Below, piece after piece: positions 4,255 through 64,000 of a DNA stretch of 64,000 nt. A program made the translations under genes and the position numbers. The DNA comes from Eledone cirrhosa (Eukaryota), in the NCBI GenBank assembly GCA_964016885.1, contig OZ024740.1:192262001-192326000 (forward strand), given 5' to 3'. The notes beneath the pieces were generated by a model, which saw only the letters and a program-made list of their open reading frames with translations, was not told where the DNA came from and did no database searches. Positions within the stretch are counted from its first letter, which is position 1. Every line of letters starts with the position of its first letter.

Positions 4255-4785
<531 letters not shown>

Positions 4786-4932: not shown

Positions 4933-5053
4933 TTATTGACACGTGTTTCTATAACAGTTACATAACCTGAAAACAGCTGCTATCTACAAAGTATTAGTTA
5001 TGCAGACAATCAATATTTCAATGTTATTATTTACTGTCATTTCATCAGAATAA
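4933..5053 (-). ncRNA. Type I hammerhead ribozyme with extended stem II
   Basis: Minus strand TTATT-CTGATGA-[ATGACAGT...ACTGTTAT, ~90 nt hairpin]-GAAA-CACGTG-TC-AATAA; palindromic stem III. Confidence 0.8.
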
Positions 5054-17966: not shown

Positions 17967-20499
17967 TGATTTATTTATTGAAAAGAAACAACAAAGATTT
18001 AATATAAAGGGTCTGTTTGGGAACAGGTTTTGAATTGACCAATAGAGAAGTAGTTAGAGGTCAAGTTGATAGAATAGTGGTAGTAGAAATTTTATTTAGG
18101 TGTAGAGGAGTGCAGACTTATATTTTGAATGAAAATAATACTTTGGGGAAGAAAAGAGGTCAAGCCAGTGAACGGTAGACGAACATTTGATATTATTAAA
18201 GAATAATGTTAAAAACGAAGGAAAATAAAATTTTAGGGTAACGGTATTAGTGAGAAATACTAATCTTATTTAAGCCACAAGGAAACTAGATCTATAAGAA
18301 GAAATTAAATTAATTGATAGGTCTACTTATAAGGATATATTTATATTAATTCATATGAATGTGATAAATAAGAATTAGATGTTATTAAAGACTGTTGTTA
18401 AAAAACGAAGGAAAGTAATATTTGGTATAAGGGTAGTAGTGAGAAATACCAATCTTATATAAACTACAAGGAATCTAGATTCATAACAGGAAATTAAATT
18501 AATTTATAGGTATACTTTTAGGTATTAATTTTAGGAAAAGAGTTGTAAGAGGGAAATAAAATTATGAAGTTCTCTGTAGTAAATTACTAATTATAGGTTA
18601 ACTAAATTAAAAAAAATTAATTATAACAATATATAAAATATAAGTGTAAGGTGTATGTTAATTAGGTTTATAATATTTGAATGTTCTTCGAATTCTATGA
18701 TTAATTCCTGTCGCTTATTTAATAAGATATCCTTAGATTTCATGATTTCAAAAAGTTCCTGGGAGCATAACCTACACTCGTATCTGTTATTTTGATAAGG
18801 AGTGGCCCTATTGAGCACACTCCAGGTCAGGTTGTAATTGATATTCTTCTTTCAATAATTATTAATTGTTTCAGCCAAGGATGTTGTATTAGCTAATGTG
18901 GCATTTTTTAAACTATGTTTGTGTGTATTAAATCTTACTTTAAATTGGTTAGAGGTAGCTCCTATATATGAATAAGTGGAGTCCTTAGTGCTAATTTTAC
19001 ATTTATAGACTATGTTATTAATAAGACAATTTCCCTTTAATGGGCAATTTATTTTGATTCTCCAGTTACAACCATTCGTGAATATTATATCAGGTTAGTC
19101 AAATTTGGTGTGAAATTTTCTGGACTTGTTATATGTGAAGGAGATGGTGGTTTGTTGCGGTTTATTTTAGTATTATGTTTGGTTTGATGTGTTGGTGGTA
19201 TATTTGTGGGGGGTTTTACATTTATATGCGTTGTACGCACTTATATTTTTTTGCATATTTTTGGAAGTGGAGTAGGAAAATTTGACAATTGATCTATTTA
19301 AAATTGGATGGTATCTATGGTTTGGCCGCAAGCTTTTCTCTAGGATTGTAACATATTTTTTATGGATATTATCTTTAATTTGTAGATTAATGGACCATTA
19401 TACCAAGTAACCCGTCTATTACGATTTCGATATTGTTTTTTATATTTATACGTTGTATCAGTATGTTTACTAAGAGAGTTACTATTAGTGAATTTGTTAT
19501 ATGTAGGTTTAGTTAGATTAACTCATTTAGGTGTTTTAGTCTGATTACTAGGAATGTTGTTAGTAATGTTGTTAACATATATTGGAGTATTAGGATGAAT
19601 GGTTTTTTGACAGCCATTATATTTTATGTGAGAAGTGGTAGAGAAATTAAGTTTTAGGTTGGTAATTTGGGGTGTAGTATGAGTGTCATTTAGGTGTGAG
19701 TTTTTAATTTGGTGTTTGTTGGTAATATTGGGTTGTATGTTTGAAGCATTATTGGTGCAAGGTATATAGACTAATTTGTTTTATGGCCGTTTCTAACTAA
19801 AACCTCGTTATAAAAGGGCGCGTTTTTATCGAATACATCCTGGTTAGATGAAATGTTAGAGATTATGAGTGAGATATTATATGCTAGGTTTTTAAGGATA
19901 GATCTGGGGTGATTGGATTGTGAGTGTATGTAATGTAAGTTTTGGTTAGGTTTATGGTAAGGTTGGTAGATACCCGTAGATATGTCTAAAGTTATATCTA
20001 GCAAATTGACTATTTTACTGGTGATTTCAAATGTAATAGTGAGATTGTAATAGTCTTTGAGGATGTTCTAATAATTCTTTTTTTTAAATTTCTGATAAGC
20101 TAAGATTAATGGTTAGAAGAAGACAGTCATCACGATATGAACCACCTTTAAGGTGGGGAAAAGATTAATTAATGTTAAATAGAAGAAAGAGGCCCACAAA
20201 ATCGGTAATTTGGGCGGAATCACTAGAGCCCATAGTAATGTCGAAGAGATACTATATGTATTTCTGGTCCAGTATTCCTTCTGAAATCCCCAGTAGTGTT
20301 TGTCTAGCGTGCGTGATAATATTAATGTCATCCATATTTAAGTTTGATCTATTTTTGGCAAATATCAAGGCTTTGTTCCGGAGTGTCCGTGATATAGAGG
20401 AATAATAAGTATCTATATCAAATTGTAAAAATGAAGCAGATGATTTATTATCTAATATTAGTAAACCAGATAATTACTTGGGATGTGTTTTCCCAGAGT

Positions 20500-21060
20500 T
20501 GTGTACCACCAACACATCAAACCAACAATAATACTAAAATAAACCGCAACACACCGCCATCTCCTTCACATATAACAAGTCGAGTAAATTCCACACCAAA
20601 TCTGACTAACTCCCCTGATATAATATTCACGAATGGTTGTAACTGTAGAATCAAAATAAATTGCCCATTAAAGGGAAATTGTCTTATTAATAACATAGTC
20701 TATAAATGTAAAATTAGCACTAAGGACTCCACTTATTCATATATAGGAGCTACCTCTAACCAATTTAAAGTAAGATTTAATACCCACAAACATAGTTTTA
20801 AAAATGCCGCATTAGCTATTACAACATCTTTGGCTGAATCAATTAATAATTATGGAAAGAAGAATATCGATTACAACCTGACCTGGAGTGTGCTCAAAAG
20901 GGCCACCCCTTATCAAAATAACAGATACGAGTGTAGGTTATGCTCCTAAGGAACGTTTGGAAATCATGAAATCTAAGGATATCTTATTAAATAAGCGACA
21001 GGAATTAATTATATCTTGCAATCATAGAATTAGAAGAACCTTCAACTATTATAAACCTAA
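20500..21060 (+). pseudogene. Inverted copy of PLE linker + GIY-YIG endonuclease
   Basis: CNCRIKINCPLKGNC (CxCx5C), NIVY...YIG, VRFNTH, CRLC; premature TAA at 20947-20949. Confidence 0.9.
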
Positions 21061-21763
21061 TTAATATACGCCTTACACTTATATTTTACATATTATTATA
21101 ATTATTTTTTTTAAATTTAGATAACCTATAATTAGTAATTTACTACAGAGAACTTCACAATTTTATTTCCCTCTTTTCCTAAAATTAATACCTAAATGTA
21201 TACCTATAAATTAATTTAATTTCTTGTTATGAATCTAGATTTCTTATAGTTTATATAAGTTTGGTATTTCTCACTACTACCCTTGTCCCCAATTTTTAAT
21301 TTCCTTCGTTTTTTAACAACACTATTTAATAACATCTAATTCTTATTTATCAGATTCATATGGATTAATATAAATTTATCCTTATAAGTATACCTATCAT
21401 TTAATTTAATTTCTTGTTATAGATCTAAGTTCCTTATGGTTTAAATAAGATTAGTATTCCTCACTATTACCGTTACACTAACATTTTATTTTCCTTGGTT
21501 TTTTAACATTATTCTTTAATAACATCAAATTTTCGTGAACCCTTCATTGGCTTGACCTCTTTCATCCCCGAAGTATTATTTTCATTCAAAGCATTATTTT
21601 CATTCAAAATATAATCTGCACTCCACTACCATTAAATTAAATTTCTACTACCACTATTCTATCAACTTGACCTCTAACTACTTCTCTATTGGTCAATTCA
21701 AAACCTGTTCCCAAACAGACCTTTTATATTAAATCTTTGTTGTTTTATTTCAATAAATCATTC

Positions 21764-22349: not shown

Positions 22350-22715
22350 CAATATATTAATAAATGGAAACTATTTATAAAACCATATTTTATTTTATTA
22401 TATTTCAAGGGCAACCAAGGCAAATTATGGTGCGCGTTCATCATATAAAATACAGATTTGTTTATATAAATAAATATTGACATACCCGGAAAAAAGACAA
22501 CCTTAACGGTTGGACCTTCCTGGATAGCTAGATACTACCCAGGAAGCTCCAACCGTTAAGGTTGTCTTATTTCAGGGTATGTCAATATTTATTTATTAAA
22601 CAAATCTGTATTTTATCTGATGAAAGCGGACCATAATATGCCTTGGTTGCCCTTGAAATATGTATAATAAAATAAATATGGTTTCATAAATATAGTTTCC
22701 ATTTATTAATATATT
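22350..22715. repeat. Near-spacerless palindrome of a PLE tail fragment
   Basis: Arms fold back at ~22530 (CCTTAACGGTTGGA.CTTCCTGG / CCAGGAAG.TCCAACCGTTAAGG); same family as 35165-35345. Confidence 0.88.
22609..22674 (+). ncRNA. Type I hammerhead ribozyme
   Basis: TATTTTAT-CTGATGA-AAG...CTT-GAAA-TATGTA-TA-ATAAAATA; perfect 8-bp stem I. Confidence 0.82.
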
Positions 22716-27002: not shown

Positions 27003-29432
27003 TAGATGATAAAGATGGAAACCTAGACGAGATAAATAAGAAAGGGCTAGAAATCGTTAAGATGCTGAACCTGGAAAAGTACAGCCAGCCTTTCACCCCT
27101 AAGCAACCCAGATTCACACTGAATGATAACAGAGAGGACTTCCTTAGTGACCCCTCAATTAGGCTCATTAGCCCCTCTAAGTCTGACTTAGGGGTAATAA
27201 GCAAAAAAATCTTGGACGCCGTCATCCCCGTTATAAGAAGTGAAATTTATCTTGACCTATGTTGGAATACTGAGAAGGTCATTAAATGGTTCGCAAGCAT
27301 TAGTAACCATAAGTCCCTGAAGTTCATCCAATTCGATATCAACTCATACTATACCTCGATCTCTCCCATCCTTCTAAATAAGGCCCTTATATTAGCTATG
27401 CAAAATAGTGACCTGACTAGATCCCAAATTGACATCATCCTTGCTGCCCGGAGAACTATCATCATCTTCGAAGACCAACTTTGGACCCGGAAGAACACGA
27501 CGAATAACTTTGATGGCACAATGGGGTCCAGCAATTCGGCGCCGGTCACTGACTTGGTTGGACATTACCTCCTCCACGAACTGCATAAAACATTGCCGCA
27601 TTTCAAAGGCGGGCTATACCGTGACGACGCCCTGTTCACTATTGAATATAAAAAACATAATATAGAAAGGACGAGAAAATAAATACATAAATTCTTCAAA
27701 AGCTTTAACCTTAGCATAACGATAGACATAAATAATAAAACGGTTAACTTTCTAGACGTAACCCTGGACTTGGAAAATAAATACTTCTCACCCTATCACA
27801 AGCCAGATGAAACACTAACATACGTGAATGCAAATTCCAAACACCCTAGACCCGTCCTAAATGCCATAATTATAGGGGTATCTAACAGGATTAGCAGACT
27901 ATCACATAATTAGCATGCATTTAGGTCTAATGCAAGATATTATAATAAAGCTCTAGCAAAGTCCGGTTTTAGAGAAAAAAATATACTACATACAAAACAA
28001 CGCCCAAACCACCAGGGCTGGACAATATAATGTATCACACGCAATATGGCTTTGCCTAATAGAAGCGGAAACACAAATTGAAACTACATGGGTACTGTAG
28101 GCGGCTGTGACCAACCCCAAGGGACTCCATTTAACACGTCTCATCGGTATGGCAATAATGCTAACACTAGGATAAAAGCTAGAAAATTAACGTGCAATAG
28201 GAAATACAGGGAAGCCTGTTAACCCCTCCGGGTAAGGTTACCACCCCATTTTCTCTCTACCACGGAAGTTGGGTTGTCTATGCCCAGGGCCAACTCTTCC
28301 CCTAGTACGAAAAATAGGAAAAATAGACGAAGATCTAATTCCTACTTTAATCCACCTTACAACTCGGAGGTATCAACCAATATACCAAAGGCTTTATTCT
28401 CGATCTTGGAACCCCCCCACCCCCGGTAGTAAATACCTTAGTATCATTAATAAAAACACAATTAAGCTATCATTCTCCATTACTCCAAATCTAGCTCGTC
28501 ACCTAGCCATAGCGAACAATATAAAAATGAGAAAGGATTTCGAAACCATTGCAGCTGCGCCACACCCGCAACCACTAGATGGACCTGATGCGGCGTCACC
28601 CAGCAATACTATCCACACATCTGATGTACGGTTGCTAAATCTGGAACGCACGGAAAACCAAACATCTCCTGTGCCGCAGCCTCACATACACCGCAAATGT
28701 AACTCCAGACGAAAGGCGGAGTGCTCCCTAAAGGGACAATGCCTTATATACAATATTGTCTACGCATGTGATGTTACTAGTCGGACCTCCTCCAAACGTA
28801 TAAAGGGTCTACATCGACCCCCTTTAAGACTAGATACAACTCCCACCGCTATACATTTAGACATGATAGACTTAAGAAAACTACATCCCTAGCTAGTTAC
28901 ATATCCCTCCTGAAGAACACTGATATTCAATACACGCTTGATTGGATAATCATCACTAAATCATCGCAGTACAGACCCCCTAACAAGACCTGTGACATGT
29001 GTCTCTCTGAATCACACGTATGGTTGACCGCTGAGTGCTTCGAATCAAACAAAAGACCCGCCCCTAGCATCCCGTTGGATATCTAATGAATCCGCCCTTT
29101 ATGATGCGAATTGCCTCCCATACCTTCCATACGTACACTACGACTTCCTATGTTTATATTCGGACTACCGTTATGTGTTACTAGCGAGAGACTAATCTTT
29201 GAAAGTTGGAGTTAGTTGAATATGAATCATGATCCAGCTTTGATGAATTATAGAACCACACTCAAGGTAAAGTTCAGCACTGGATATTGAACTCCCGCCA
29301 ACCCAGGAGGGGTCACACCCGACTGTGAATGGATTGCAACTTCCGGAGTCAATAATCTAAACGAAAACCACGTGACGGACATATAAATAACATAGCTGTC
29401 ATGGACAGGTTTGGTTGTGAGTTATCTCTTCT
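27003..29432 (+). mobile_element. Decayed Hydra-type PLE (RT + GIY-YIG)
   Basis: IRLISPSKSDLG, FIQFDINSYYTSI, TMGSSNSAPVTDLVG, GGLYRDD, VNFLDVTLDL, KCNSRRKAECSLKGQC, NIVY, KTCDMCLSE; stops and frameshifts. Confidence 0.9.
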
Positions 29433-29988: not shown

Positions 29989-30536
29989 AATATACATATA
30001 CATATGGAAACAGTTTTGATCTAACAGTGCTGTTCCTCCTATCTAATAACCTTTCTGTTAACTGTTCATTGTCGTTTCTACCTTATATATTTTTGTTTCA
30101 GAGTTTGTGGTGACAAATGTTGATTCAAGATTTATCAGGAAATTTGTCAGATTCTGAATCTAGAAAACTCACATTATCAAGGACAGATATAACTGTTCTC
30201 TGTAACTTTGATTTTAATTGAAGTTATAGAAAGGTTCTAAAAGCAACATTTAACATGAAGAATCTGCCGGTTCATGTGATATGTCTTTCATACTTGGAAA
30301 TATCGTGAGAACTGCAGTCAGTTTAAATATTTTTAATTTCAAGAAACTGTCATAATAAAAACATCTTGAAACTATTTCTTTATAACTGAGATATATACAG
30401 ATTTGATCAAATATCATATTTTACTACCAGACGAAGTATATCCAAACTTCAGAGTTTATCAGATAGTTTCACAGAATTTATTTTTCTGCATAAAGCATTT
30501 GAAAATAATTTTATAAAATATAGTTTTGAGAAAATT

Positions 30537-31082
30537 ATGGAGGATAAACTGTGTGAAAGTTCTGTTTGTGATGAAATAAATTCTGAACCTAATGACATAT
30601 CTCATGATACCAATGGAGATATAAAGAAGAAATCATATCACTTTCACATTGATAAAAAGACAATTATACCATCTAATACTGTATTTAAGAAAAAAATTGT
30701 TCACAGAAGCTCAAAACTTAAATATATAAAACTTCACAGTAAAAGAATTACTGAAAATAGTTCTCTGTCTTTGCATGAAAATGTTTGTAAAACTGATAAA
30801 GTTTACCAATGCGGAATTTGTGGTAAAAGTTTCACTGATAGCGGTAATTTGACCAAGCATAAACGTATTCACACTGGTGAAAAACGATACCACTGTGATA
30901 TTTGTGTGAGAGCATTCTCTCAACAAGCTCATTTGACTAAACATAAATATACGCAGGTTAGAAGCCATCACGATTTGTATTTACTGTGGTATGGTTGTAT
31001 GCGGTACGATACATTGGTTGAACGCCAGCTTGGACATACAGTGAATTTTACCTGGCACGTTGGATTGAGCGACAGAACGTGA
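30537..31082 (+). pseudogene. Truncated C2H2 zinc-finger protein (2 fingers; array broken at ~30950)
   Basis: YQCGICGKSFTDSGNLTKHKRIH-TGEKRY-HCDICVRAFSQQAHLTKHK; the next linker is frameshifted (GGT TAG AAG CCA = G*KP) and the ORF then runs into unrelated sequence; candidate acceptor TTTTGTTTCAG at 30091-30101. Confidence 0.85.
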
Positions 31083-35168: not shown

Positions 35169-35345
35169 GGAAACCATATTTATAAAACCATATTTATTTT
35201 ATTCTACATATTTCAAGGGCAATCAAGGCAAATTATGGTGCGCTTTCATCAGATAAAATACAGATTTGTTTTATAAATAAATATTGACATACCTGGAAAA
35301 AAAGAAAGACAACCTTAACGGATGGGGCTTCCTGGATAGTATCCG
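35165..35345 (-). mobile_element. PLE tail fragment with degenerate HHR (family of 22350-22715)
   Basis: Direct homology to 22362-22530; minus strand CTGATGA...GAAA-TATGTA-GA, cleavage site mutated. Confidence 0.75.
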
Positions 35346-41538: not shown

Positions 41539-44500
41539 CTAGCAGCTGAGCGCGGTTGCACTCGGGGTTACTCGGGGCCACTTTTTGTTAAGTTAATAAG
41601 TTGAGGGGCGACGTGAAGAGAGTGGTTTGACAGAGAGACGTTGGGTAGAGTCGGGTTCAAAGGTGTTATTGCAGGGCTTCTTTGCAGACAACGTTCCTGA
41701 TGTTGCTTACCACAAATAAAAGATTGTGTGGACTGCCGATGCGGGACCATCCGACGTAGAGTTGACCATGGGAAAATACCTGCTGTGTTAGATTTAGGCC
41801 AACCACTTGCAGCGATTGACCTTGTACCTTATTAATGCTCTTTGCAAAGCAGAGTTTTATGGTAAACTGCCGTCGCGTAAATTCATAGGGGACGTCAGAG
41901 GAACTAAGGCTCATAGGGGTAATTAACATGGTCACGCCAGCAGCGGGTCCGCTCAAAATGGTTGTGTCCAGAATTTGTGTCCTTATTTTTTTTATGATTA
42001 AACGCGTTCCGTTGCATAGTTCTGGTGCATCCATGGTTTCTCAGCAGCATAACTGGTACACCAACCTTCAGTTTCAGATCATGAGGAGGAGGTCCTGGAG
42101 GTAGTTGATTGTGCAGGAATTCAATTGTGTAGATGACGGCGTCGTCCGCGTTTTTATTTGTGTCAATCGACTTGACGGAGACTTCATTTCCGGGAATCTG
42201 ATCGAGTTGTTTTTGATCCATCACGTCAACAGTGGCATTGTGTGGTGCCAAAATAGCTCTCACTTTCAGCCAGTTGTGTTCATGGAATCGTGATTTAAGG
42301 TCTGGAAATACACATGACATTAATCCGTCAATGTTTTACACAATGTTCCCAAAAGGCAAACGGATATGCTCTTCATCCACTCCAGGTGTAGTTCCATTAC
42401 CAAATTCCAGTAGATGTTTTGAGAAATCGATAGGGTCTGCGTCACCATGCACATGCACTCTTATGTTGGTAGTCAGATGTAGTTTGTGGACATACTGCCA
42501 TACGTAGGGCTACTTGATGCATGCGTTCACTTCGTCAGCTCTAGTGCCTCTAGTGATAACTGGAAGAGTCTGTCGGAAATTGCCAGCCAGCAGTACTGTC
42601 GCTCCACTCATGACGCGTATGTTCCGACGCAAGTCCTTGAGAGTTCGATCCAGAGACTCAAAGGCCGCCTTGTGATTCATGGTAGCCTCGTTCCATATGA
42701 TCAGGCAGCACTCAGAAAGAAGATGTGCTTTAGAGTCGTGACGATCTATTCTACATGTAGGATTCCCCTTCTTTGCAATGTCCAAAGGCAATTTGAATGC
42801 GGAGTGTGCCTTACGACCGCCATGTAACAGTGTCGCCGCAATACCACTGGAGGCGATCGCTAAATCAATCCGCTTGTCTTTTCGTAGCTTTGCAAGCAAA
42901 CGTTTGATGAGAAATGTTTTTCCTGTTCCGCTAGGAGCATCCAGGAAAAATAGCCATCCCTCATTTAAATTGACACTGGAGAGAATTCTGTCATATGCCA
43001 GTCTCTGGTCATGGGTTCGTCCTGAGCTACCTGATGTGACATATCGTCGATGTTGTAATTTAACTCACACATGAACTCCACATCTAAAGCACTGTGAGTG
43101 TTTCGAGGTTGTGGCAAACCGAAATCAGATACACCGCCAACTCCAAGAGCTTTAAGATGGTTGTCCATGTCGATGAGGGCCTCATTGTACACGGCGTCGT
43201 TGAAAGCTGGATCTTCTGCTCGTAGTCTACAGAGGATGTTCTCTGACATGTTGTCCTTATGCGTTTCCCAAAGCTTAAGGGGCTCACCTATGCCACAGAA
43301 CAATAGCATTATGCAAAACGGACGTCTCATTTCTGGAGGCATGTTACATTCAGCAGCATCTGTCAACGCCACGTTCAGGTGGGCATCATCCTCGAGTAGC
43401 CCGCGCATCACGCACGCGTCCCTGTAACTGGAACAAATGTGGCCATCGAAAAGTCTTAGGTCGGCGAATGACTTGGGCCCTTTGATTTTATGCAGCAACA
43501 TTCGCAGTAAAAAGCGTTCTTGTTGCTTCGGAAGAACATTATACACGCGTCCGATGGCATTATCTCTGAAGACACCTACCCAATCCTCAACGTTTTCCCC
43601 TTGGCGCAACCGATGCCATTTTTTGTTCGACCAAATGAAGTAGGTAGGTTCATCGACGTAAAAAAGGGTAACTGCAAATGTATCGACAAAACATAGCTTA
43701 AAAAATGCTGTAAGCGACGTCTCAGGTGGCTGTTCGGCAGCATCCGATGCGGTTTCCGCAGTGAAGTAAACGCGTTGACCATTCTCTAAGTGAAAATACA
43801 AGTTAACAAGTGCTGGAGAGCACATGTGAATTTCAAGCCCCAAAATGTGTCATGTCGCCGCCTTTGTTGATGTATTCGTAGATGTATTTAATGCTTTTAA
43901 CAGATGTGCAGGACTCTACATTGGTGTGAGCATTAAAAACGTTAGCAAGCAAAGGGCTGTAAGGCACCACCCAGCTGTTGTCAATGTCGTATTTTTTCCC
44001 TTTCCTCTTAATCCTAGCCGAAAGGCCGCGAAAATCGGGAGCACGACGCCGGTAGATGGGGTAGCCGTCAACTCCAGTGCAAGTTTCCCTGGTGAAGGCT
44101 CTGGGGTAGTGTTTGGAGCATATGTTCCCCTGCATGCATGAATATTAGCCACCACAATGTTGTAAAGCTATAAATCAATTTGGGGAACGGGCAACTCTGC
44201 ACATATACCGCGATCAATGTCCGTACGTCTGATTCGTTCTTTACACCAAATAAGAATATGTGCGTGCGGAAGATCCCGCTTCTGCCATTCCACAGTATAC
44301 ATCCAAGAACTGAGTTGTCCGTAGATGGCCTTATCTTTCAGCAAGCACATTAGTTTCTTCAACTTTCCGTGGGAGACTCTAGTCGTAATATCATGCATGT
44401 CACTCGTCACCTGGCCCGCGAATAAATTCTCCTTAATCTCCACCCAATTAGGATTACATGTGACAGTAATAAAAAGATCCGGCCGCCCAAACGGACATAC

Positions 44501-44782
44501 GCCATGGCATCCTGTGTCCGTTTATGCATGTACCGGGGTGAGCCAGTAAAGTTTGAAGGAAGGATCACCTGATGCCTAACAAGTAGTCGTTTCAATAAAA
44601 AGTTTCATTAAAAAAGCGAAGCGAAAATTGAAAAAATTAATGTCATTGTTTACGTATAATGAATTGAAAATGCTTCACTAAGAGATGGATATAAAAGTAT
44701 TTTAGGTTAAATAGTATAGGGAGGTATGTAGGATACATCCATACATACATACATACACACGACGCTCAGCTTTATATAAGTA
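41539..44782 (-). mobile_element. Helitron with internally deleted, frameshifted Rep/PIF1-helicase gene and both termini
   Basis: Rep: GSPRYM, EWQKRDLPHAHILIW (HUH), KYIYEYINKG. Helicase: FFLDAPSGTGKT, ASSGIAATLL.GGR.AHS.FKLP, KVQGQSL, FSHGQLYV. 3' hairpin GAGTGC-AACC-GCGCTC + CTAG|T at 41539; 5' ACTTATATAAAG-type end at ~44782. Confidence 0.95.
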
Positions 44783-46672: not shown

Positions 46673-48095
46673 GTGGAATGAGTGAGCGACTGATAGAGAG
46701 GTTATAGGCATAGATTGAAAAGAGTTTATTAACCTGATAAAGTGGAAATCAAAATAGGGCACATGTCATCTTATGAAGGGAGTAAAGAGGAAAAGTTGAT
46801 TGAGTGACAATGATATTAGGGTTGTTGATGTTATGTTCAGATAGAGTTGAATGGCCTAAATGATCATTGGTGGAGAAACAAAATAGGTTTGAGGTGATAG
46901 AGTGGTTTCATATTATTGTTGAAATGTTAAAAAATGGTGCTGATTGTACATGATTTGGTTTGAACAGTAAGGGAGTATTTTACAAATGAGAAACAAATGT
47001 CATGAAATTCTGGAATGAAAATTAAACATACATACAATGCATACACGCACACACACACACACACATATATATATAAGGAAAATGTTCAAGACCCCGACGG
47101 CAGAGTTCAAGCCGTTTTAACGGCTATTTCTGTACTACTCTGGTGCGTTATCGTCCACTTGTCTGCTTACCACACTTCCTTCGTTTTATATATATATGCT
47201 GGGATCTATTTATATATATATATAATTCCACTAAATGTATCCAATAAATAGCCAACTAATTAAGTCTACTGTTAACGAATAGAAAATGAGTCTCCCACAT
47301 GCTTCTATTGTGTATCTGTCTCCAGAATTTCACAGGGGATCATGGCAGAAGACACACACCACATTTTCACGCAGCAGGAGGGAAACCAAATAATTGAATG
47401 CAAAATTTTGAACATGATCGATGGATTTGTAGAAATGTCAATATTATTGAATCAACGTCTGACATTTGAGACAAAAAAACACACTGCAATTGATTTAATC
47501 TAAATTTAAAAAAAGGCACATTGGTCACGGTTAGAGTGCCTTTCATTCTGAAAACTTTACTGAACAATGAGAGGAACAGAATATATAGATGATATGTCAT
47601 TTAAATTTCAAGCTTTTTTATTCTTTATAATTATGTTTCGCTTTTTCATTATCTTTCTTTTAGAAGAGTGATTTAATCCGATACTGCGGTTATATGGTCG
47701 AATATTAAATACTTTCAGAGGGAATATGTGAATATTTATTATACATACACATGCTGAATTTGAGATAATATAAAGCTTTAGTATATACGTAGTTGTAATG
47801 TCGCGACATACTCTATGTTATTAAGCTATCAAGAAAAATAGATTGTTTAAAAATCGGTATATGAGTAAGACTATTTATGTTTCTTATATATAATCGTATA
47901 ATATATGTTCCCATTAATACATTTATCATATTTTAACATATTTAATATATATACATACATCAGTGTGTGTGCTTGTTTCATTTACTTATATTACAGATGT
48001 TGCATTTATAAATAAATGTACCCCCCCCCCCCCCGGGCGCCACACACACACACATATATATATATAAGAAAATATCGCTCTACATGGCTGAATAC

Positions 48096-50339: not shown

Positions 50340-50850
50340 AGACTAAAATCCAAAGACGACTCAACATCTCTGAATATTGCCCAAAATATAGCAAACACTA
50401 ATAATACCAATCTTAAAATGAAGCAAATCGAAATAACACCCAACGCTAACAATAGTAATATTGATAATAGCTTAGGAAATAATAATAATATACACTTTAA
50501 TAGCAGAGCTGCATCATCAACTAATAACATAAGGAAATGTAATTGTAAGAACAGTTTTTCTTGCCCACTACTTCATCTAAATTTAAGGAAAGATGTCATA
50601 ACCATACGTATACGTTTAAAAGAATGGATAAGAAATTCTCAACTCCCACATCTCAGTTAATACGGTCTCTTAAAAACAAAAACATAGATTACTCATTATC
50701 TTGGCAAAAGCTGGCTAACGCCTTACCATATCTAACTTTCCTCTATTTCTTTAAATTGTAATCTCTGTAATACTGAAATTCTTCATATTATTAGTAATAC
50801 AAAATGTATTATTAATAAAAGAACAGAGATATTAAGTGACTGTTTGCACT
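50340..50850 (+). pseudogene. Hydra-type PLE linker + GIY-YIG remnant
   Basis: RKCNCKNSFSCPL, FKERCHNHTYTF, YSLSWQKL, CNLCNTE. Confidence 0.82.
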
Positions 50851-50914
50851 GTTTTTCTAGATCATTTCACAGAATATATAGCTAAAATTATATATTCGTA
50901 TGGTTCACTTGATA

Positions 50915-55830: not shown

Positions 55831-56814
55831 TTAATTAGGTTTATAATATTTAAATGTATTTCTCAGTTTATGATTACACGATATTATTAATTCCTGTCGC
55901 TTATTTAATAGGATATCCTTAGATTTCATTATTTCAAATAGTTCTTGGGAACACAATCTACATTCATTTCTATTATTTTGATAAGGGGTGGCTCTTTTGA
56001 GCACACTCCAGGTCATATCATATTCTATATTCCTCTTTCTATAACTATTAATTTTTTCTGCTAGAGATGTTGTATTAGCCAGTGCGGCATTTTTAAAACT
56101 ATGTTTGTGGGTATTAAATCTTACCTTAAAATTGTTAGAAGTAGCTCCTATATATGAGCAAATAGAATCCTTAGTTTTAACTTTACATTTATATACTATG
56201 TTGTTAACAAGACAATTTTCTTTTAATGGGCAGTTTGCCTTGTTTCTACAGTTACAACCTTTCGTTAATTCTGTATTTGAGGAGATATTATGGCTAGTTT
56301 GATGTACTGGTGGTATATTTATGTTTTTTTTACATTTATATGCATTATAGGCACATATATTTTGTTTTATGTTTTTGGTTGTTGAGTATGAGAATTTAAC
56401 TGTTGATCTATTTAAGATTTGATGGTATTTGTGGTTTGGCGGGAAGTTTTTCTCTAGGATTTTAACAAATTTTTTAGGTATATTATCCTTAATTTGTAAA
56501 TTAAATGGAGCATTATACCAAGTAACTCGTCTATTACGGTTTCTATGTTGTTTATTGTTTTTATAGGATGCATCCTGATGTTTACTAGGAGGATTATTGT
56601 TAATGACCTCTCCACGCACATTTTTAGTTAGATTTATTGATTTAGGTGTTTTAGCTTGTTTATTAGGAGTTTTATTATTAACATTTATTAGAGTTGTAGG
56701 ATGAGTAGTTTTTTTAGTGTTACTATACTGTATATTAGAGGAGTTAGAGAAATTTGGTTTTATGTTGGTATTTTGGGGTATAGTGTGAGTGGCATTTAGG
56801 TGTGTACGTTTCAT
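55831..56814 (-). CDS. PLE polyprotein C-terminal part (N/T/K-rich linker, CxCx5C, GIY-YIG endonuclease)
   Basis: VTWYNAPF, CNCRNKANCPLKENC, NIVY...YIG, VRFNTH, CRLCSQE, LLNKRQE. Confidence 0.88.
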   Translation of the reverse strand: MKRTHLNATHTIPQNTNIKPNFSNSSNIQYSNTKKTTHPTTLINVNNKTPNKQAKTPKSINLTKNVRGEVINNNPPSKHQDASYKNNKQHRNRNRRVTWYNAPFNLQIKDNIPKKFVKILEKNFPPNHKYHQILNRSTVKFSYSTTKNIKQNICAYNAYKCKKNINIPPVHQTSHNISSNTELTKGCNCRNKANCPLKENCLVNNIVYKCKVKTKDSICSYIGATSNNFKVRFNTHKHSFKNAALANTTSLAEKINSYRKRNIEYDMTWSVLKRATPYQNNRNECRLCSQELFEIMKSKDILLNKRQELIISCNHKLRNTFKYYKPN

Positions 56815-57086
56815 TTGGTGTTTGTTGGTAATATTAGGTTGTATGTTTATAGTGTTATTGGTAGAAGGTATATATTACAATCTATTTTTGTGGCCACTTC
56901 TAGCTAGAGCTTCGTTATAAAAGGTCGCATTTTTTTCAAATACATCTTGGTTAGACGAAAGGTTAGAAATTCTAAGTGATATATTATATGCAAGGTTTTT
57001 AAGGATAGATTTAGGGTGATTAGATTGTGAGTGTATGTAGTGTAAATTTTGGTTGGGTTTATGGTAAGGTTGGTAGATACCCGTAG

Positions 57087-57697
57087 CTAAGTTTTATCTA
57101 GGAAATTAACTACTTTACTTGTGTTTTCAAAAGTAATATCTAGACTATAATAGTCTTTAAGGAAAGTTCTAATAAGCTTTTTGTTTTTTTCTATCCCTGA
57201 GAGGCTAAGGTTGTTGGAAAGAAGAAGACAGTCATCACGATATAAAGCACCTTTAAGGTGGGGAAAGGAAGCATTTATGTTAAAAAGAAGAAAGAGGCCC
57301 ACAAGATCAGTAATTTGGGCAGAATCGCTTGAGCCCATAGTAATATCAAATAGATTACTATATGTGTTTCTGGTCCAGTATTCATTCTGAAATTCAATTA
57401 GTGTTAGTCTAGCATGTGTAATAATATTAATGTCATCCAAAGTTAAGTTAGATCTATTTTTAGCAAATATCAAAGCTTTGTTCAGGAGTATAGGTGATAT
57501 AGAAGAATAGTAATTATCTATATCAAATTGTAAAAATGAAGCAGAGGATTTACATCTAATATTATTAAACCAGTTAATTACCTGGGAAGTGTTTTCCCAG
57601 AGTGGTAAATTAACATGTTTTCTTATTTGTGGGATGACTCTATCTAAAATATTTTTGCTAATTATTCCAATATCTGATTTGGGACATATAAGTCTTA
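57087..57697 (-). pseudogene. PLE reverse transcriptase core, frameshifted at the 3' end
   Basis: IRLICPKSDIG, FLQFDIDNYYSSI, FDITMGSSDSAQITDLVG, GALYRDD, VNFLD. Confidence 0.92.
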
Positions 57698-58010
57698 TAT
57701 AGTTTGTATAATTATAGTTTGTATAATTATAGTTTGTATAATTTTGTACATAGATCTTTTGAATATGCATACCAATTCTAACACATATATGTCCTAGAAA
57801 CGATCGTAAAATAATGAATTTTTTTGTTTAATATAAGGAACTGTTTCTTTGTTTATTCATTATTTTTTTAATAACTTATTTTGACTCTGTTTTCCGTTTA
57901 TCTTTCACCGAAAGTGATTATTGAATGCATCTCTTCTTTTCATGATATCCGGATTACATTGAGTTCTTCATACGGATTGGACACTACCGTAAACTTTTGG
58001 TAGATTTACC

Positions 58011-58460: not shown

Positions 58461-58520
58461 CATACATATATATGTGTATATCTATATACATACATATATA
58501 TGTGTATATATATATATATA

Positions 58521-59596
58521 TTTCGTTTCTGAATTTGTTTAGCAAGATTCTTTATCTGAAATCGTGTGTTGAAACCGATATTGTTATACTTTGGGAGGGT
58601 CATGTTGCCAATAAGAAACACACGCACCAGTTGCTTTCACTTCAATTTAATTTAATATATATTTATAAATTTCCAAATTTATAAATTTCTGGTTGGTTGG
58701 TTGGTTCCACAACCAGATAGTTGTTTATATATATATAGTCATAGTTCTTTCGTCACACACTCTGTGACCTCTTCAGTGACTGGGGATTTCTTTCTTCGTT
58801 TCTGTGCCTTTCCTTTCTTCTATCCTACGCCATTTTGTTTGTGTGTGGGTTGCGTGCTCAGTTTGCGCATGCGCCACATCCGGGTGTCTGTGTGTGTTTG
58901 TGTTCATTTTTCTATTTTTCTATTTTTATATTTATATTTGTTTGTTTATTTATTTATTTATTGTTGGTTGGTTGTTTGTTCTATGTGTGTGTGTGTTTTC
59001 ATTTTGTCTTGTGTGTGTTTTCATTTTGTGTGTGTTTTCAATTGTAAGTTGTTTATATATGTGTGTGTGTGTTTTCATTTTGTCCTTAATTGTAAGTTGT
59101 GATGTTGCTGTTCCACTCATATTTTCTATTTAATTTTGGTTTTAATTCTTTTATGCTTACTGCCTCTGTAATTTGCCTAAACATTGCGTCTTTCTTGTGT
59201 GTGGATTCTATTTTTATTTCTATGCTCTCTAATTTACCCCTGTGTTCTATCTTAGCATGTTGGTAGAGCACAGATGATTCTTTACTATCTTGGAGGTCTC
59301 GCCAGTGTTCATTTATTCGTTCCCCTATACTACGAGCTGTCTCACCTATGTACACTATATTTTTGTTTCTACATTGTCCCTCAGTACATCTTATGCTATA
59401 TACTACATTTCTAGTTTTACAGTTAATATGGGGGCTTATTTTACAGGTTATACATTTCTTATCTATACATGAGGGTCTTTGGAACGGGTATGTCTTGCTA
59501 ATAAGTGTTTTTACGGAGGTACCAGGTCTTTCTACTATCTTAATATTGAGATTATGTTTCTTTAGGGCCCTTCTAAATTTGTAGGCTAGTTCACCC
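58521..59596 (-). mobile_element. Neptune-type PLE 3' fragment (Cys linker + GIY-YIG + pLTR)
   Basis: PCIDKKCITC...CKTRNVVYSIRCTEGQC..VYIGETARSIGERINEH...LYQHAKIEH...RQITEA...LNRKYEW (CCHH-type EN). Confidence 0.85.
58737..58781 (-). ncRNA. Minimal type I hammerhead ribozyme
   Basis: Minus strand AGTCA-CTGAAGA-G-GTCACA(GAGTG)TGTGAC-GAAA-GAAC-TA-TGACT. Confidence 0.82.
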
Positions 59597-59620
59597 CTAG
59601 AGGTGAACTAGCCTACAAAT

Positions 59621-60595
59621 TTGGACGTGACCCTCGACCTCGAAAACGACCTGTACTACCCATACAGGAAACCTAATGACAATCTGCACTACATCCACCG
59701 CCGATCAAACCATCCTAGGAACATCACAAACAACCTGGTCAAAAACATCTCCCTCCGCATATCCCGTTTGTCAGCTAATGAGCGGATATTCGATGAACAT
59801 GCGCCTTATTACAACCAGGCCCTCAAGCGGAGTGGTTTCCGGGAGGAAATATCCTACTGTCCCGATCCCATTAGCGGAACCAGCAGGAGACACCGCCGCT
59901 CACGCAATGTAACTTGGTTCAATCCTCCCCACAACGCAGAGGTGACTACTCCCATCGGGAAACTATTCTTTAGGCTCATTGAAAAACACTTCCCATTACA
60001 ACACCGCTACCACAACATAATTAACAAAATTACCATCAAACTCTCTTACAGCACTACACCAAACTTCGCACAAAACATCGTCTCCTCTAACAACAAAAAA
60101 CTCAACCCCGATGGCAGAAATAACCTAAATAGCAGTGGAGAACCGACCAGGAGGTGTAACTGCCCGGATAGATCTATTTGCCCACTCGACAATAGATGCA
60201 GAGACCGTAATGTGATCTACCAGTGCAACGTGAGGACGGCTACCTCCAACAAAGCCTATATAGGACTTACCGCATGTGACTTCAAGACCCGGCTATACCA
60301 ACATAGACATACCTTCCGAAACCCGGCCCGGCGTCACGCCACTACACTTTCGGGCCACATATGGGACCTCAAGGACAACAACATCACCTATGATCTCACT
60401 TGGAGATTACTGTCCAGAGCCAATTCTTACACGGGAGGACGCCGTCCGTGCAATTTATGCTCGGAGGAAACTTTACAAATGCTGTTTTCGACGGACCAAC
60501 TCCTAAACAAGAAAGATGAACTGGTTACTGCATGTAAACATAGATTGCGTAGGACTTACCTCGCCCTCAAACCCCATAATGACCCGGGGGGGTAG
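59621..60595 (+). CDS. Hydra-type PLE RT thumb + GIY-YIG endonuclease (5'-truncated, uninterrupted ORF)
   Basis: LDVTLDL, YPYRKPND.LHYIHRRSNHP, VTWFNPP, CNCPDRSICPLDNRC, NVIY...YIG, TRLYQH, CNLCSEE. Confidence 0.92.
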   Translation: MDVTLDLENDLYYPYRKPNDNLHYIHRRSNHPRNITNNLVKNISLRISRLSANERIFDEHAPYYNQALKRSGFREEISYCPDPISGTSRRHRRSRNVTWFNPPHNAEVTTPIGKLFFRLIEKHFPLQHRYHNIINKITIKLSYSTTPNFAQNIVSSNNKKLNPDGRNNLNSSGEPTRRCNCPDRSICPLDNRCRDRNVIYQCNVRTATSNKAYIGLTACDFKTRLYQHRHTFRNPARRHATTLSGHIWDLKDNNITYDLTWRLLSRANSYTGGRRPCNLCSEETLQMLFSTDQLLNKKDELVTACKHRLRRTYLALKPHNDPGG

Positions 60596-61693
60596 ACTAG
60601 GGCTATAACACCCCAGTTGCCGATTTTGCAATGGGTAACCCCTGCTTGCCAAGGAAGACGTAAGATCTTCTTTGTATTCTTTTATCGCATCCTTTATTTC
60701 CTTCCCCCCTCTCTCCTTTGTCCTTCTACCCCAGCTCTTCTCCTTTGTCGGCGTCTTTTCTCGCCCACCCGAGGCTGCCCTTTGGCCCCTTGTAGCCTTA
60801 GTACCCCCACTCCCCCCTCCCCTAGTCTTTGATAGATTTGGCGGACGCCGCCCTTTATAGCAGTTGGCTTAGACCCCGGATACTTGCCCCCGTTTTCCGA
60901 CCGCTCCCACTATTCTCTGTGCCCTCTATATTTCTTAGTGGCACTTATGCCTTATTTTTTCGTTTCAGTATTTCTTGCTTCGCTTTTCTTCTGGGCGGGG
61001 TGGATTCTGAACTTATTTCTCCGTATTCTACCTTTATTTCGTACGAACTTTCATGTAGCTTGTTTTAGATCTTTTAGAGTTAGCATTAGTATATATTTTT
61101 CTCGGGACTCAGAATTATTATGTCGTACAAGTTCACTTTGCTGCACTGGGTCGTTGCTGGCCCGGGATGGAAACCTTTATTGTTTATTTCGTGGTAGTCT
61201 CTTTAGTATTTTGGCCCCTTTTGTTGACCAGTCACCGTATCATTTACGTACTTATACCTCTTAAAAGGGTCCTTGCCTAATTCGTCCCACCTAGTTCTTT
61301 TACGTATTTCCTTATTTATTTATTTATTTATTTATTTACTTCTTTCTTTCTTTCTTTATTTTATTCTCGCCTAACAATAGCCTGACACCTAGGTCGTAGA
61401 ATTTAATTTTTTCTTTACACTTATTTGCTTTCCTTCACTCTCAGTATTTTTTCTTTCCTATTTCTACCCCCCATTGTTCTACCTACCGTTCCGACTTCCT
61501 CCCCCTCCCCCTCCCCTGTATCTTCTTTGACCTCATGCCCAGCTGTAGCTGGCACTACCAACGCTTGATTGGGTCTACTCCACCCCCTCCCCTCTTTCTC
61601 CTACTGGCAGGTTTAGCCACCATCTCCCCTACTAATTTGCAACCACAGAATTACTACTGATTTTTGACAATCACTTTGACCATATATGGAATT

Positions 61694-61787
61694 ACCCCTT
61701 GAGAAGATCGGCTATTTAAATACCAGGATAAATGTTCATTTAGTCCAGAATTAGCCGTCGAAACGGCTTGAGCTCAGCTGTCGGGGT
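61694..61787 (+). ncRNA. Hammerhead ribozyme, U3-A8 core variant
   Basis: ACCCC-TTGAGAA-GA(T)CGGCTA...TAGCCGTC-GAAA-CGGCT(TGAGCTC)AGCTG-TC-GGGGT. Confidence 0.82.
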
Positions 61788-61799
61788 CTTACTGGTTCC

Positions 61800-61962
<163 letters not shown>

Positions 61963-62140
61963 GTTTGAACAAGTAAGACCCCGACGGCTGAGCTCAAGCC
62001 GTTTCGAAGGCTAATTCTGTACTGAATGAAAAATAAAATGTATTTTTATATATATATATATATATAATTAAATAAATATATATATATATTATATATATTA
62101 TATATATATATATATTATATATATATATATATATTATATA

Positions 62141-62201: not shown

Positions 62202-64000
<1,799 letters not shown>

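Follow-up and report, generated by a model that had tools for sequence, protein, structure and literature searches.

Near the end of the window, as we call the whole stretch of 64,000 nucleotides of Eledone cirrhosa DNA that was analysed, a Hydra-type Penelope-like element (PLE) is present as a 5'-truncated copy, which starts at 59622, finishes against (TA)n at about 61801 and has a hammerhead motif at its 3' end. Its ORF on the plus strand (59622-60595, residues 394-717 of 717) encodes the thumb of the reverse transcriptase (RT), a CxCx5C linker and a GIY-YIG-type endonuclease, and the remnant is open for 327 codons (59612-60595) without interruption, as the earlier note on this DNA had said. 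A 3' UTR follows (60596-61687, plus strand), and the target microsatellite (TA)n occupies 61800-61963. The UTR evolves fast between subfamilies: in 6 comparisons the ribozyme was 79-93% identical while the adjacent UTR was 61-77% identical over the 400 nt compared. Complete units were found in tandem arrays elsewhere in the assembly. The unit is 3,531 bp long with a 717-aa ORF, and the arrays are perfect head-to-tail repeats with a 3,531-bp period, five copies of which stand at C1:437.20-437.21 Mb. The studied copy is 99.4% identical to a full tandem unit (L032), with 12 substitutions and zero gaps over 2,166 nt. The element protein is a single 717-aa ORF with RT and, at the C-terminus, a GIY-YIG-type endonuclease lacking CCHH. 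It has the motifs RWR at 37, DKT at 117, YRDD at 348, CNCPDRSIC at 572, VIY..YIG at about 591-608 with one cysteine between, CNLC at 670 and CKH at 698. Pfam gave no family for the protein, partial or full-length, and its 2,049 homologues, mostly at 38-43% identity, are almost all unnamed. The insertion traits of the Hydra type, namely (TA)n targets, tandem and inverted copies and a tail, were found. Two general traits of the Hydra clade are lacking, as the core is not canonical (U3-A8) and the unit of 3,531 bp is not under 3 kb; a canonical hammerhead and a length under 3 kb are general traits of that clade and not its definition (Craig et al. 2021, PMC8557442). Judged by its protein motifs and near-identity the element is a young Hydra-type PLE, in agreement with the earlier note.

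The window contains a number of other elements. Head-to-head with the studied copy stands a different PLE (58500-59621, GIY-YIG by Pfam). They are joined at about 59574-59621 through a hairpin whose arms exceed 20 bp, and (TA)n lies outside both. This neighbour carries a canonical minimal hammerhead on the minus strand (58737-58781), and it is possible that the neighbour and the studied copy represent one event with two different RNAs. At 62530-62570 on the minus strand a degenerate remnant looks, by eye, like the minimal hammerhead of the neighbour. The minus strand at 61964-62030 holds a further, separate stub, which belongs to a sister subfamily and is broken in loop II of the ribozyme; the full copies of that subfamily have the core TTGATAA. 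Another stub, from an old subfamily, covers 47089-47190 with an inverted half-ribozyme arm and part of the tail. The half-copy reported earlier near 47089 is real (47089-47137, 85% over 47 nt) and is the inverted arm of this stub, the tail being at 47136-47185. Decayed remnants of other Hydra-like PLEs are seen at 18699-21061, 27023-29014, 50361-50867 and 55837-57698 (protein pieces 30-53% identical), and a hammerhead scan beside two of these remnants found none. Other hammerhead-like candidates with CTGANGA occur at 4575-4650, 4980-5053, 22609-22674 and 35179-35257, the last two being related. In addition, there are minus-strand frames at 41666-44521, which we take to be like a broken Helitron Rep/PIF1 helicase, and an open frame with C2H2 zinc-finger repeats at 30390-31082.

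The motif at the end of the studied copy (61694-61787, plus strand) has the layout of a type I hammerhead: its core is surrounded by three stems, of which stem I is open. The 5' strand of an extended stem I, GGAATT-ACCCC (61688-61698, ACCCC being 61694-61698), leads into the core TTGAGAA (61699-61705), which gives U3 U4 G5 A6 G7 A8 A9. Next come G10.1, a free base, U and the 5' strand of stem II (61706-61714, CGGCTA at 61709-61714); the free base is A, C, G or U depending on the subfamily. Loop II of 37 nt (61715-61751) is followed at 61752-61762 by the 3' strand of stem II (TAGCCG, 61752-61757), C11.1 and G12 A13 A14 (GAA, 61760-61762). Stem III (61763-61781) has 6 pairs, including one G.U, between ACGGCT (61763-61768) and AGCTGT (61776-61781), and the palindrome TGAGCTCA lies in its loop. 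The cleavage triplet GTC is at 61780-61782. The predicted scissile bond, after C17, is between 61782 and 61783, where a sharp breakpoint exists among genomic copies. The remainder (61783-61801) consists of the 3' strand of stem I (GGGGT, 61783-61787), a bulge and the 3' end of the insertion, designated site 1, which is likely to be where reverse transcription starts. The core, the pairing of stems I-III and the GTC site are as described in the earlier note, from which two features were absent, namely the canonical G10.1-C11.1 pair (61706/61759) and the extension of stem I by GGAATT (61688-61693) and GGTTCC (61794-61799) around a 6-nt bulge.

The minimum-energy fold is the three-way junction as read. 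The fold is not unusually stable (z -0.75 against shuffles, 42 of 200 of which fold equally well, and a further z of -0.25), and what speaks for the hammerhead is therefore its core positions and its conservation, not energy. U4 G5 A6, A9, G12 A13 A14, A15.1-U16.1, the NUH triplet and G10.1-C11.1 are all present, whereas the 3-8 Watson-Crick pair is U-A in the studied copy and its subfamily and broken in about 1,230 relatives. It should be noted here that the pattern searches preset some core positions, and subfamilies without those positions are invisible to them. In a 14-copy alignment the stem cells are paired in 94.7%, compared to 20-52% for slid partners, and a two-sided change is seen in 0 of 19 stem pairs, most of which never vary. 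No hammerhead match was obtained from Rfam at 61500-61800, nor among the 150 matches listed of 195 window-wide. This miss by canonical models, which the earlier note had foreseen, is expected from the variant core and the long loop II, and the one thing it makes less likely is that the motif belongs to a curated Rfam family. We regard it as nearly certain that the motif is a hammerhead ribozyme homologue.

Comparison of genomic copies revealed how positions 3 and 8 behave in the lineage. The young subfamily gave 2,171 exact 21-mer matches (reversed control 0), and the exceptions are 17 copies without U3, none of them C3-G8, and 16 without A8. U3 and A8 are thus both fixed in their subfamily. 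Looser patterns added 1,671 U3-A8 copies with A, C or U at position 7 and 628 more that differ after G10.1. As U3-A8 copies occur with all four bases at 7, this position is free while 3 and 8 hold. Relatives without U3 number 1,280, and the first 100 listed comprise 96 C3.A8 (89 with G7), 1 C3-G8 and 3 with a purine; some 1,230 older copies carry the C3.A8 mismatch. Run contigs contain the C variant too, at about a quarter of the depth in run X1, and hence it is not an assembly artefact. U3 without A8 was found in 57 copies, of which 17 read TTGAAGA, 16 of these with a loop sequence of their own, and the TTGAAGA copies are an old U3.G8 subfamily. C3-G8 is limited to 11 scattered copies (13 matches, 2 by chance), and no C3-G8 subfamily was found in the lineage. 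An older C3-G8 sister subfamily of 12 loci was considered and rejected, since the loops of 10 of the 11 true C3-G8 copies are those of the C3.A8 grade, a frequency close to that of background mutation. A shift of register in which C3 pairs with G7 was considered because of the G7 in 89 of 96 C3.A8 copies. It would be a single event on the tree and would shorten the core, and a C.A wobble, which is isosteric with U.G, is simpler.

The order of these states was followed on a tree of the ORF, independent of the ribozyme, for 51 copies from fetched loci picked for ORF coverage. The tree is a ladder that begins with six old U3 copies, passes through a grade of eleven with C3.A8 and ends in 34 young U3-A8 copies (96/86). 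A single clade for the C3.A8 rows was rejected with p-AU 1e-35 (40 rows, near-identical young rows dropped), and therefore position 3 has changed at least twice. Rooting by protein outgroups puts the root at a U3.G8 copy (support 0.59) and disagrees with rooting by the sister family, which puts it in the early C3.A8 grade (61/44). Within-group divergence is 0.113 for U3.G8, 0.090 for early U3-A8, 0.085 for early C3.A8 and 0.000 for the youngest group, and only 0.030 for one old-looking U3 group. The longer end branches and higher divergence of the U3.G8 and early U3-A8 groups, which are noisy measures, favour the order U to C to U at position 3. The states that spread at 3-8 have a pyrimidine at 3 and a purine at 8 only; U-A, U.G and C.A have all done so, and the position is loosely constrained in the lineage. 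The swap is not compensatory within the lineage, and the earlier description of it as covariant is too simple, given the missing C3-G8 subfamily, the C3.A8 copies and the stem pairs without two-sided change. A second young Hydra-type family (L223-L242, e.g. L227:4548-4625), with a protein 54% identical, also ends in a hammerhead-shaped motif. In that motif C3-G8 is retained while position 4 is A (CAGAAGA in 38 of 39 motifs), and the fold is not energy-favoured.

Most insertions of the studied family are tiny palindromic stubs, made up of (TA)n, the inverted 3' end, the forward 3' end with an 80-nt tail, and (TA)n. A 20-mer of the tail just 3' of the ribozyme occurs 39,767 times, compared to about 5,800 whole-core copies (sum over patterns). 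Of the first 100 places by position 99 were read, 96 of them distinct after identical rows, including whole copies, were merged; 67 of these 96 have tails ending at one same base, and the family shows two fixed 3' ends. Among 152 arms of a position-ordered sample, counted from the cut site, 8 pass -60, 94 break from -30 to -59, 42 from -1 to -29 and 8 at 0. The breaks fall for the most part within loop II, at 35-48 nt ahead of the cut site, a boundary some 13 nt wide. For the youngest subfamily the arms that reach -40 number 5,900, those that reach -41 number 4,749 and those that reach -48 number 1,917; at -42 the genomic T is present in 3,059 arms, and G accounts for 898 of the 1,690 non-T arms. 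Where such a G was followed in 20 loci, the partner arm offered no source for it in 13 and a possible source in 7. Two stubs have an extra G on both arms, and an extra G is also found beside plain (TA)n. An extra G is the expected trace of cap copying. Contig depth rises about sevenfold at the same boundary in four runs of one study, although contigs are unable to show RNA starts or ends. Among the sequencing runs listed as containing the sequence none is listed as RNA. The base at -41, A61742, lies within TTAGT (61740-61744, plus strand; TCAGT in sister subfamilies), which we take to resemble an invertebrate initiator. Upstream, at 61713-61720 on the same strand, is the TATA-like TATTTAAA, with weaker variants in other subfamilies; it stands 29 nt before the presumed start, and in likeness and spacing we assume it to be a TATA element. 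Thus transcription quite probably starts at about 61742 inside loop II, with a capped A. An internal promoter has been mapped in the end repeat of Penelope (Schostak 2008, PMC2377424).

The scissile bond is a second place of breakage. In the young U3-A8 group 358 matches break exactly after C17, while the neighbouring controls gave 35 matches one base earlier (C17 kept) and 33 one base later. These counts are of matched patterns that exclude most untruncated copies, and the listed rows were classified by eye. The first 100 listed of the 358 are 81 true breaks and 17 single-base plus 2 longer insertions at the bond, and about 11 stubs among them have both arms ending at the bond. About 8 of the 35 matches keeping C17 are cut-site stubs with one C between the arms. 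For the C3.A8 period, a shared bulge type, by estimate about three quarters C3.A8, gave 379 matches at the bond against 71 in the control, with 63 true breaks in the first 100 listed. The other bulge of that period, with C3.A8 in 9 of 11 whole copies, gave 155 matches without a matched control; 43 of the first 100 listed are breaks, six of them from one local duplication. Single-base insertions at the cut site, mostly G, account for 17 of the first 100 listed rows of the young group and, for the early C3.A8 group, about half, and may be jump scars, slippage in the G run or a fifth G pairing with a fifth C. The breaks are most simply read as reverse transcription, in either core state, of RNA whose 5' end lay at the scissile bond. 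The pile-up at the predicted cut site favours function and is likely a fossil record of cleavage in vivo, so that this roughly tenfold peak would serve as indirect in vivo evidence. We are fairly confident, from these genomic traces, that the ribozyme cleaves the RNA of the element in vivo, and it is probably active. Arms breaking at the cut site number only about 300, roughly 1-3% of the group by a rough normalisation. The peak speaks for copying of the 5' end of cut RNA, and not for a cut-made 3' end of the productive template.

These observations can be put together in a transposition cycle. We consider it reasonably probable that the locus holds the 3'-end type I hammerhead of a young Hydra-type PLE with U3-A8 fixed, likely cutting in vivo, together with a start in loop II and a terminal-repeat jump. 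The promoter would lie inside the ribozyme and the transcript would start at A61742. Such a start would mean that the 5' end of the RNA carries only the 3' half of the ribozyme and is usually uncut and capped; for a complete ribozyme to form, transcription would have to continue past the end of the unit. A cut at the 3' copy would trim the RNA and leave a 41-nt direct repeat at both ends. Reverse transcriptase, primed at a (TA)n nick, would start inside the leader, 19 or about 100 nt past the cut site, copy 60 or 140 nt to the cap and then jump to the 3' repeat. If the jump failed on both strands a palindromic stub would result, and long and tandem copies would come from jumps that succeeded or were repeated. 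This cycle would account for insertions reaching 19 nt past the cut, for the dominance of stubs and for the rebuilding of the end repeat. An internal start of reverse transcription, at two sites that define the tail, has been shown for another PLE (PMC11167929). The strand transfer to the 3' repeat is the step on which we are evenly divided. The fuller version remains tentative: a promoter in loop II, a 41-nt repeat made by the cut and an LTR-like strong-stop transfer would rebuild the pseudo-LTR, stubs would record both start and cleavage, and cutting would have persisted through U.G, U-A, C.A and again U-A. It should be considered that the 3' half of the ribozyme could be conserved as a promoter or protein-binding site rather than as a catalyst.

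A broader form of this alternative is rather unlikely, and it survives best among the rivals. It says that the ribozyme cuts weakly or incidentally and is unneeded for transposition, the fold being kept mainly as promoter, protein-binding site and start site of reverse transcription, in which case the 3-8 pair drifts. This agrees with the position of the C3.A8 grade, some 1,230 copies, which on the ORF tree lies between U3-A8 groups, and also with the old U3.G8 subfamily (17 of 57), the U4A core of the sister family in 38 of 39 motifs and the dispensability of cleavage in vitro, where ribozyme mutants of the anole PLE did not block insertion (PMC11167929). However, the 5' half, which is upstream of the presumed start, is also conserved, the cut-site peak persists in the groups of the C3.A8 era, and only the pyrimidine-3/purine-8 states have spread. 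A less probable alternative, with perhaps an outside chance, is the model of Cervera and De la Pena (2014), in which monomers running from cut to cut are closed into circles by ligation and reverse-transcribed by a rolling-circle route, stubs being side products. Against this stands the lack of a 5' end in a circle, as most arms stop at a single boundary and have an extra G. The perfect head-to-tail arrays with the 3,531-bp period fit circles, breaks at the cut site indicate that cut RNA exists, and the insertions across that site could be scars of ligation as well as of a jump; both routes could coexist. We find it very improbable that both boundaries are artefacts of copying or repair, by stalls at RNA structure and trimming of palindromes at G/C runs. 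The spread of breaks over -35 to -48, the microhomology between arms at the joins and the G run adjoining the cut site would suit such artefacts, but C17 should be retained if copying stalled at the foot of stem III, and that class is ten times rarer, breaks losing one G are equally rare, and the extra G is present on both arms and beside plain (TA)n. Finally, a private double mutant of a CTGANGA family, a case raised in the earlier note itself, is refuted by the subfamily counts, for although 26 of 26 Hydra ribozyme rows in File S2 of Craig 2021 (PMC8557442) are canonical CTGANGA, having been found with a canonical descriptor, U3 with A8 is the norm in 2,171 exact copies, 0 of the 17 non-U3 copies of the subfamily have C3-G8, and the whole lineage has 11 C3-G8 copies.

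A ribozyme that likely cuts, with a likely start site inside loop II, remains the preferred reading. The U3-A8 pair as such is not new, since natural U3-A8 core variants have been published (Perreault et al. 2011, PMC3088659) and about 1,300 U3-A8 motifs are known in Schistosoma PLEs (Cervera and De la Pena 2014, PMC4209133). The statement of the earlier note that U3-A8 restores activity depends on context, as only a G-C swap rescued activity in a deep mutational scan of another hammerhead (Roberts 2023, PMC9901934). By itself the pair is a new example of a published variant. Such core variants may already be listed in Lunse 2017. It is the stub record of the family that lifts the interest beyond the U3-A8 pair. 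A C3.A8 core at about 1,230 copies, still with a cut-site peak, challenges the view that a Watson-Crick 3-8 pair is required; a start site inside the ribozyme would give a concrete and testable transposition cycle; and searches by descriptor would overlook the entire lineage. A literature search that covered few subscription papers found no description of a C3.A8 core that had amplified, of a start within the hammerhead of a PLE or of a breakpoint peak at the cut site.

The nearest known relatives of this ribozyme share much of its design. Like the minimal hammerheads of Cercyon PLEs in Schistosoma mansoni (PMC4209133) it is of type I, lies in a PLE end repeat and has U3-A8 and G10.1-C11.1, a long stem II with an unpaired base near its start and a palindromic loop III. 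In contrast to the minimal Cercyon hammerheads, the Eledone stem III has the full 6 pairs, so that a monomer fold is possible, loop II has 37 nt, the extended stem I contains a bulge, the copies are near-identical and there are sister subfamilies with C3.A8 and U3.G8. The variants of Perreault et al. 2011 (PMC3088659) have the same swap at 3-8 and are isolated examples, whereas thousands of dated copies are found here. These Eledone copies trace the path of positions 3 and 8 through mismatched states. The host element resembles the Hydra clade (PMC8557442) in its C-terminal endonuclease, DKT, CxCx5C linker, CxxC and CxH and lack of CCHH, as well as in (TA)n targets and a ribozyme near the 3' end. 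It has RWR where that clade has RWK, and its 3.5-kb unit with a 1.1-kb 3' UTR differs from the lengths generally under 3 kb there. The Poseidon PLE of green anole likewise has two internal starts of reverse transcription defining a tail, AT-rich targets and a hammerhead upstream (Frangieh 2024, PMC11167929). Cleavage there is protein-assisted, and what is accessible of that report gives no reads ending at the cut site and describes neither a ribozyme-internal start nor a strand jump; the Eledone tail has 80 nt. The nearest parallel to the proposed jump comes from outside PLEs, as in both cases a short cDNA near the 5' end of the RNA would jump to a 3' repeat. In LTR retroelements this is the minus-strand strong-stop DNA, which makes the first strand transfer to the 3' repeat. 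In the Eledone element the primer would be target DNA and not a tRNA, the 3' end of the repeat would be set by the ribozyme, and the jump is a step that we infer.
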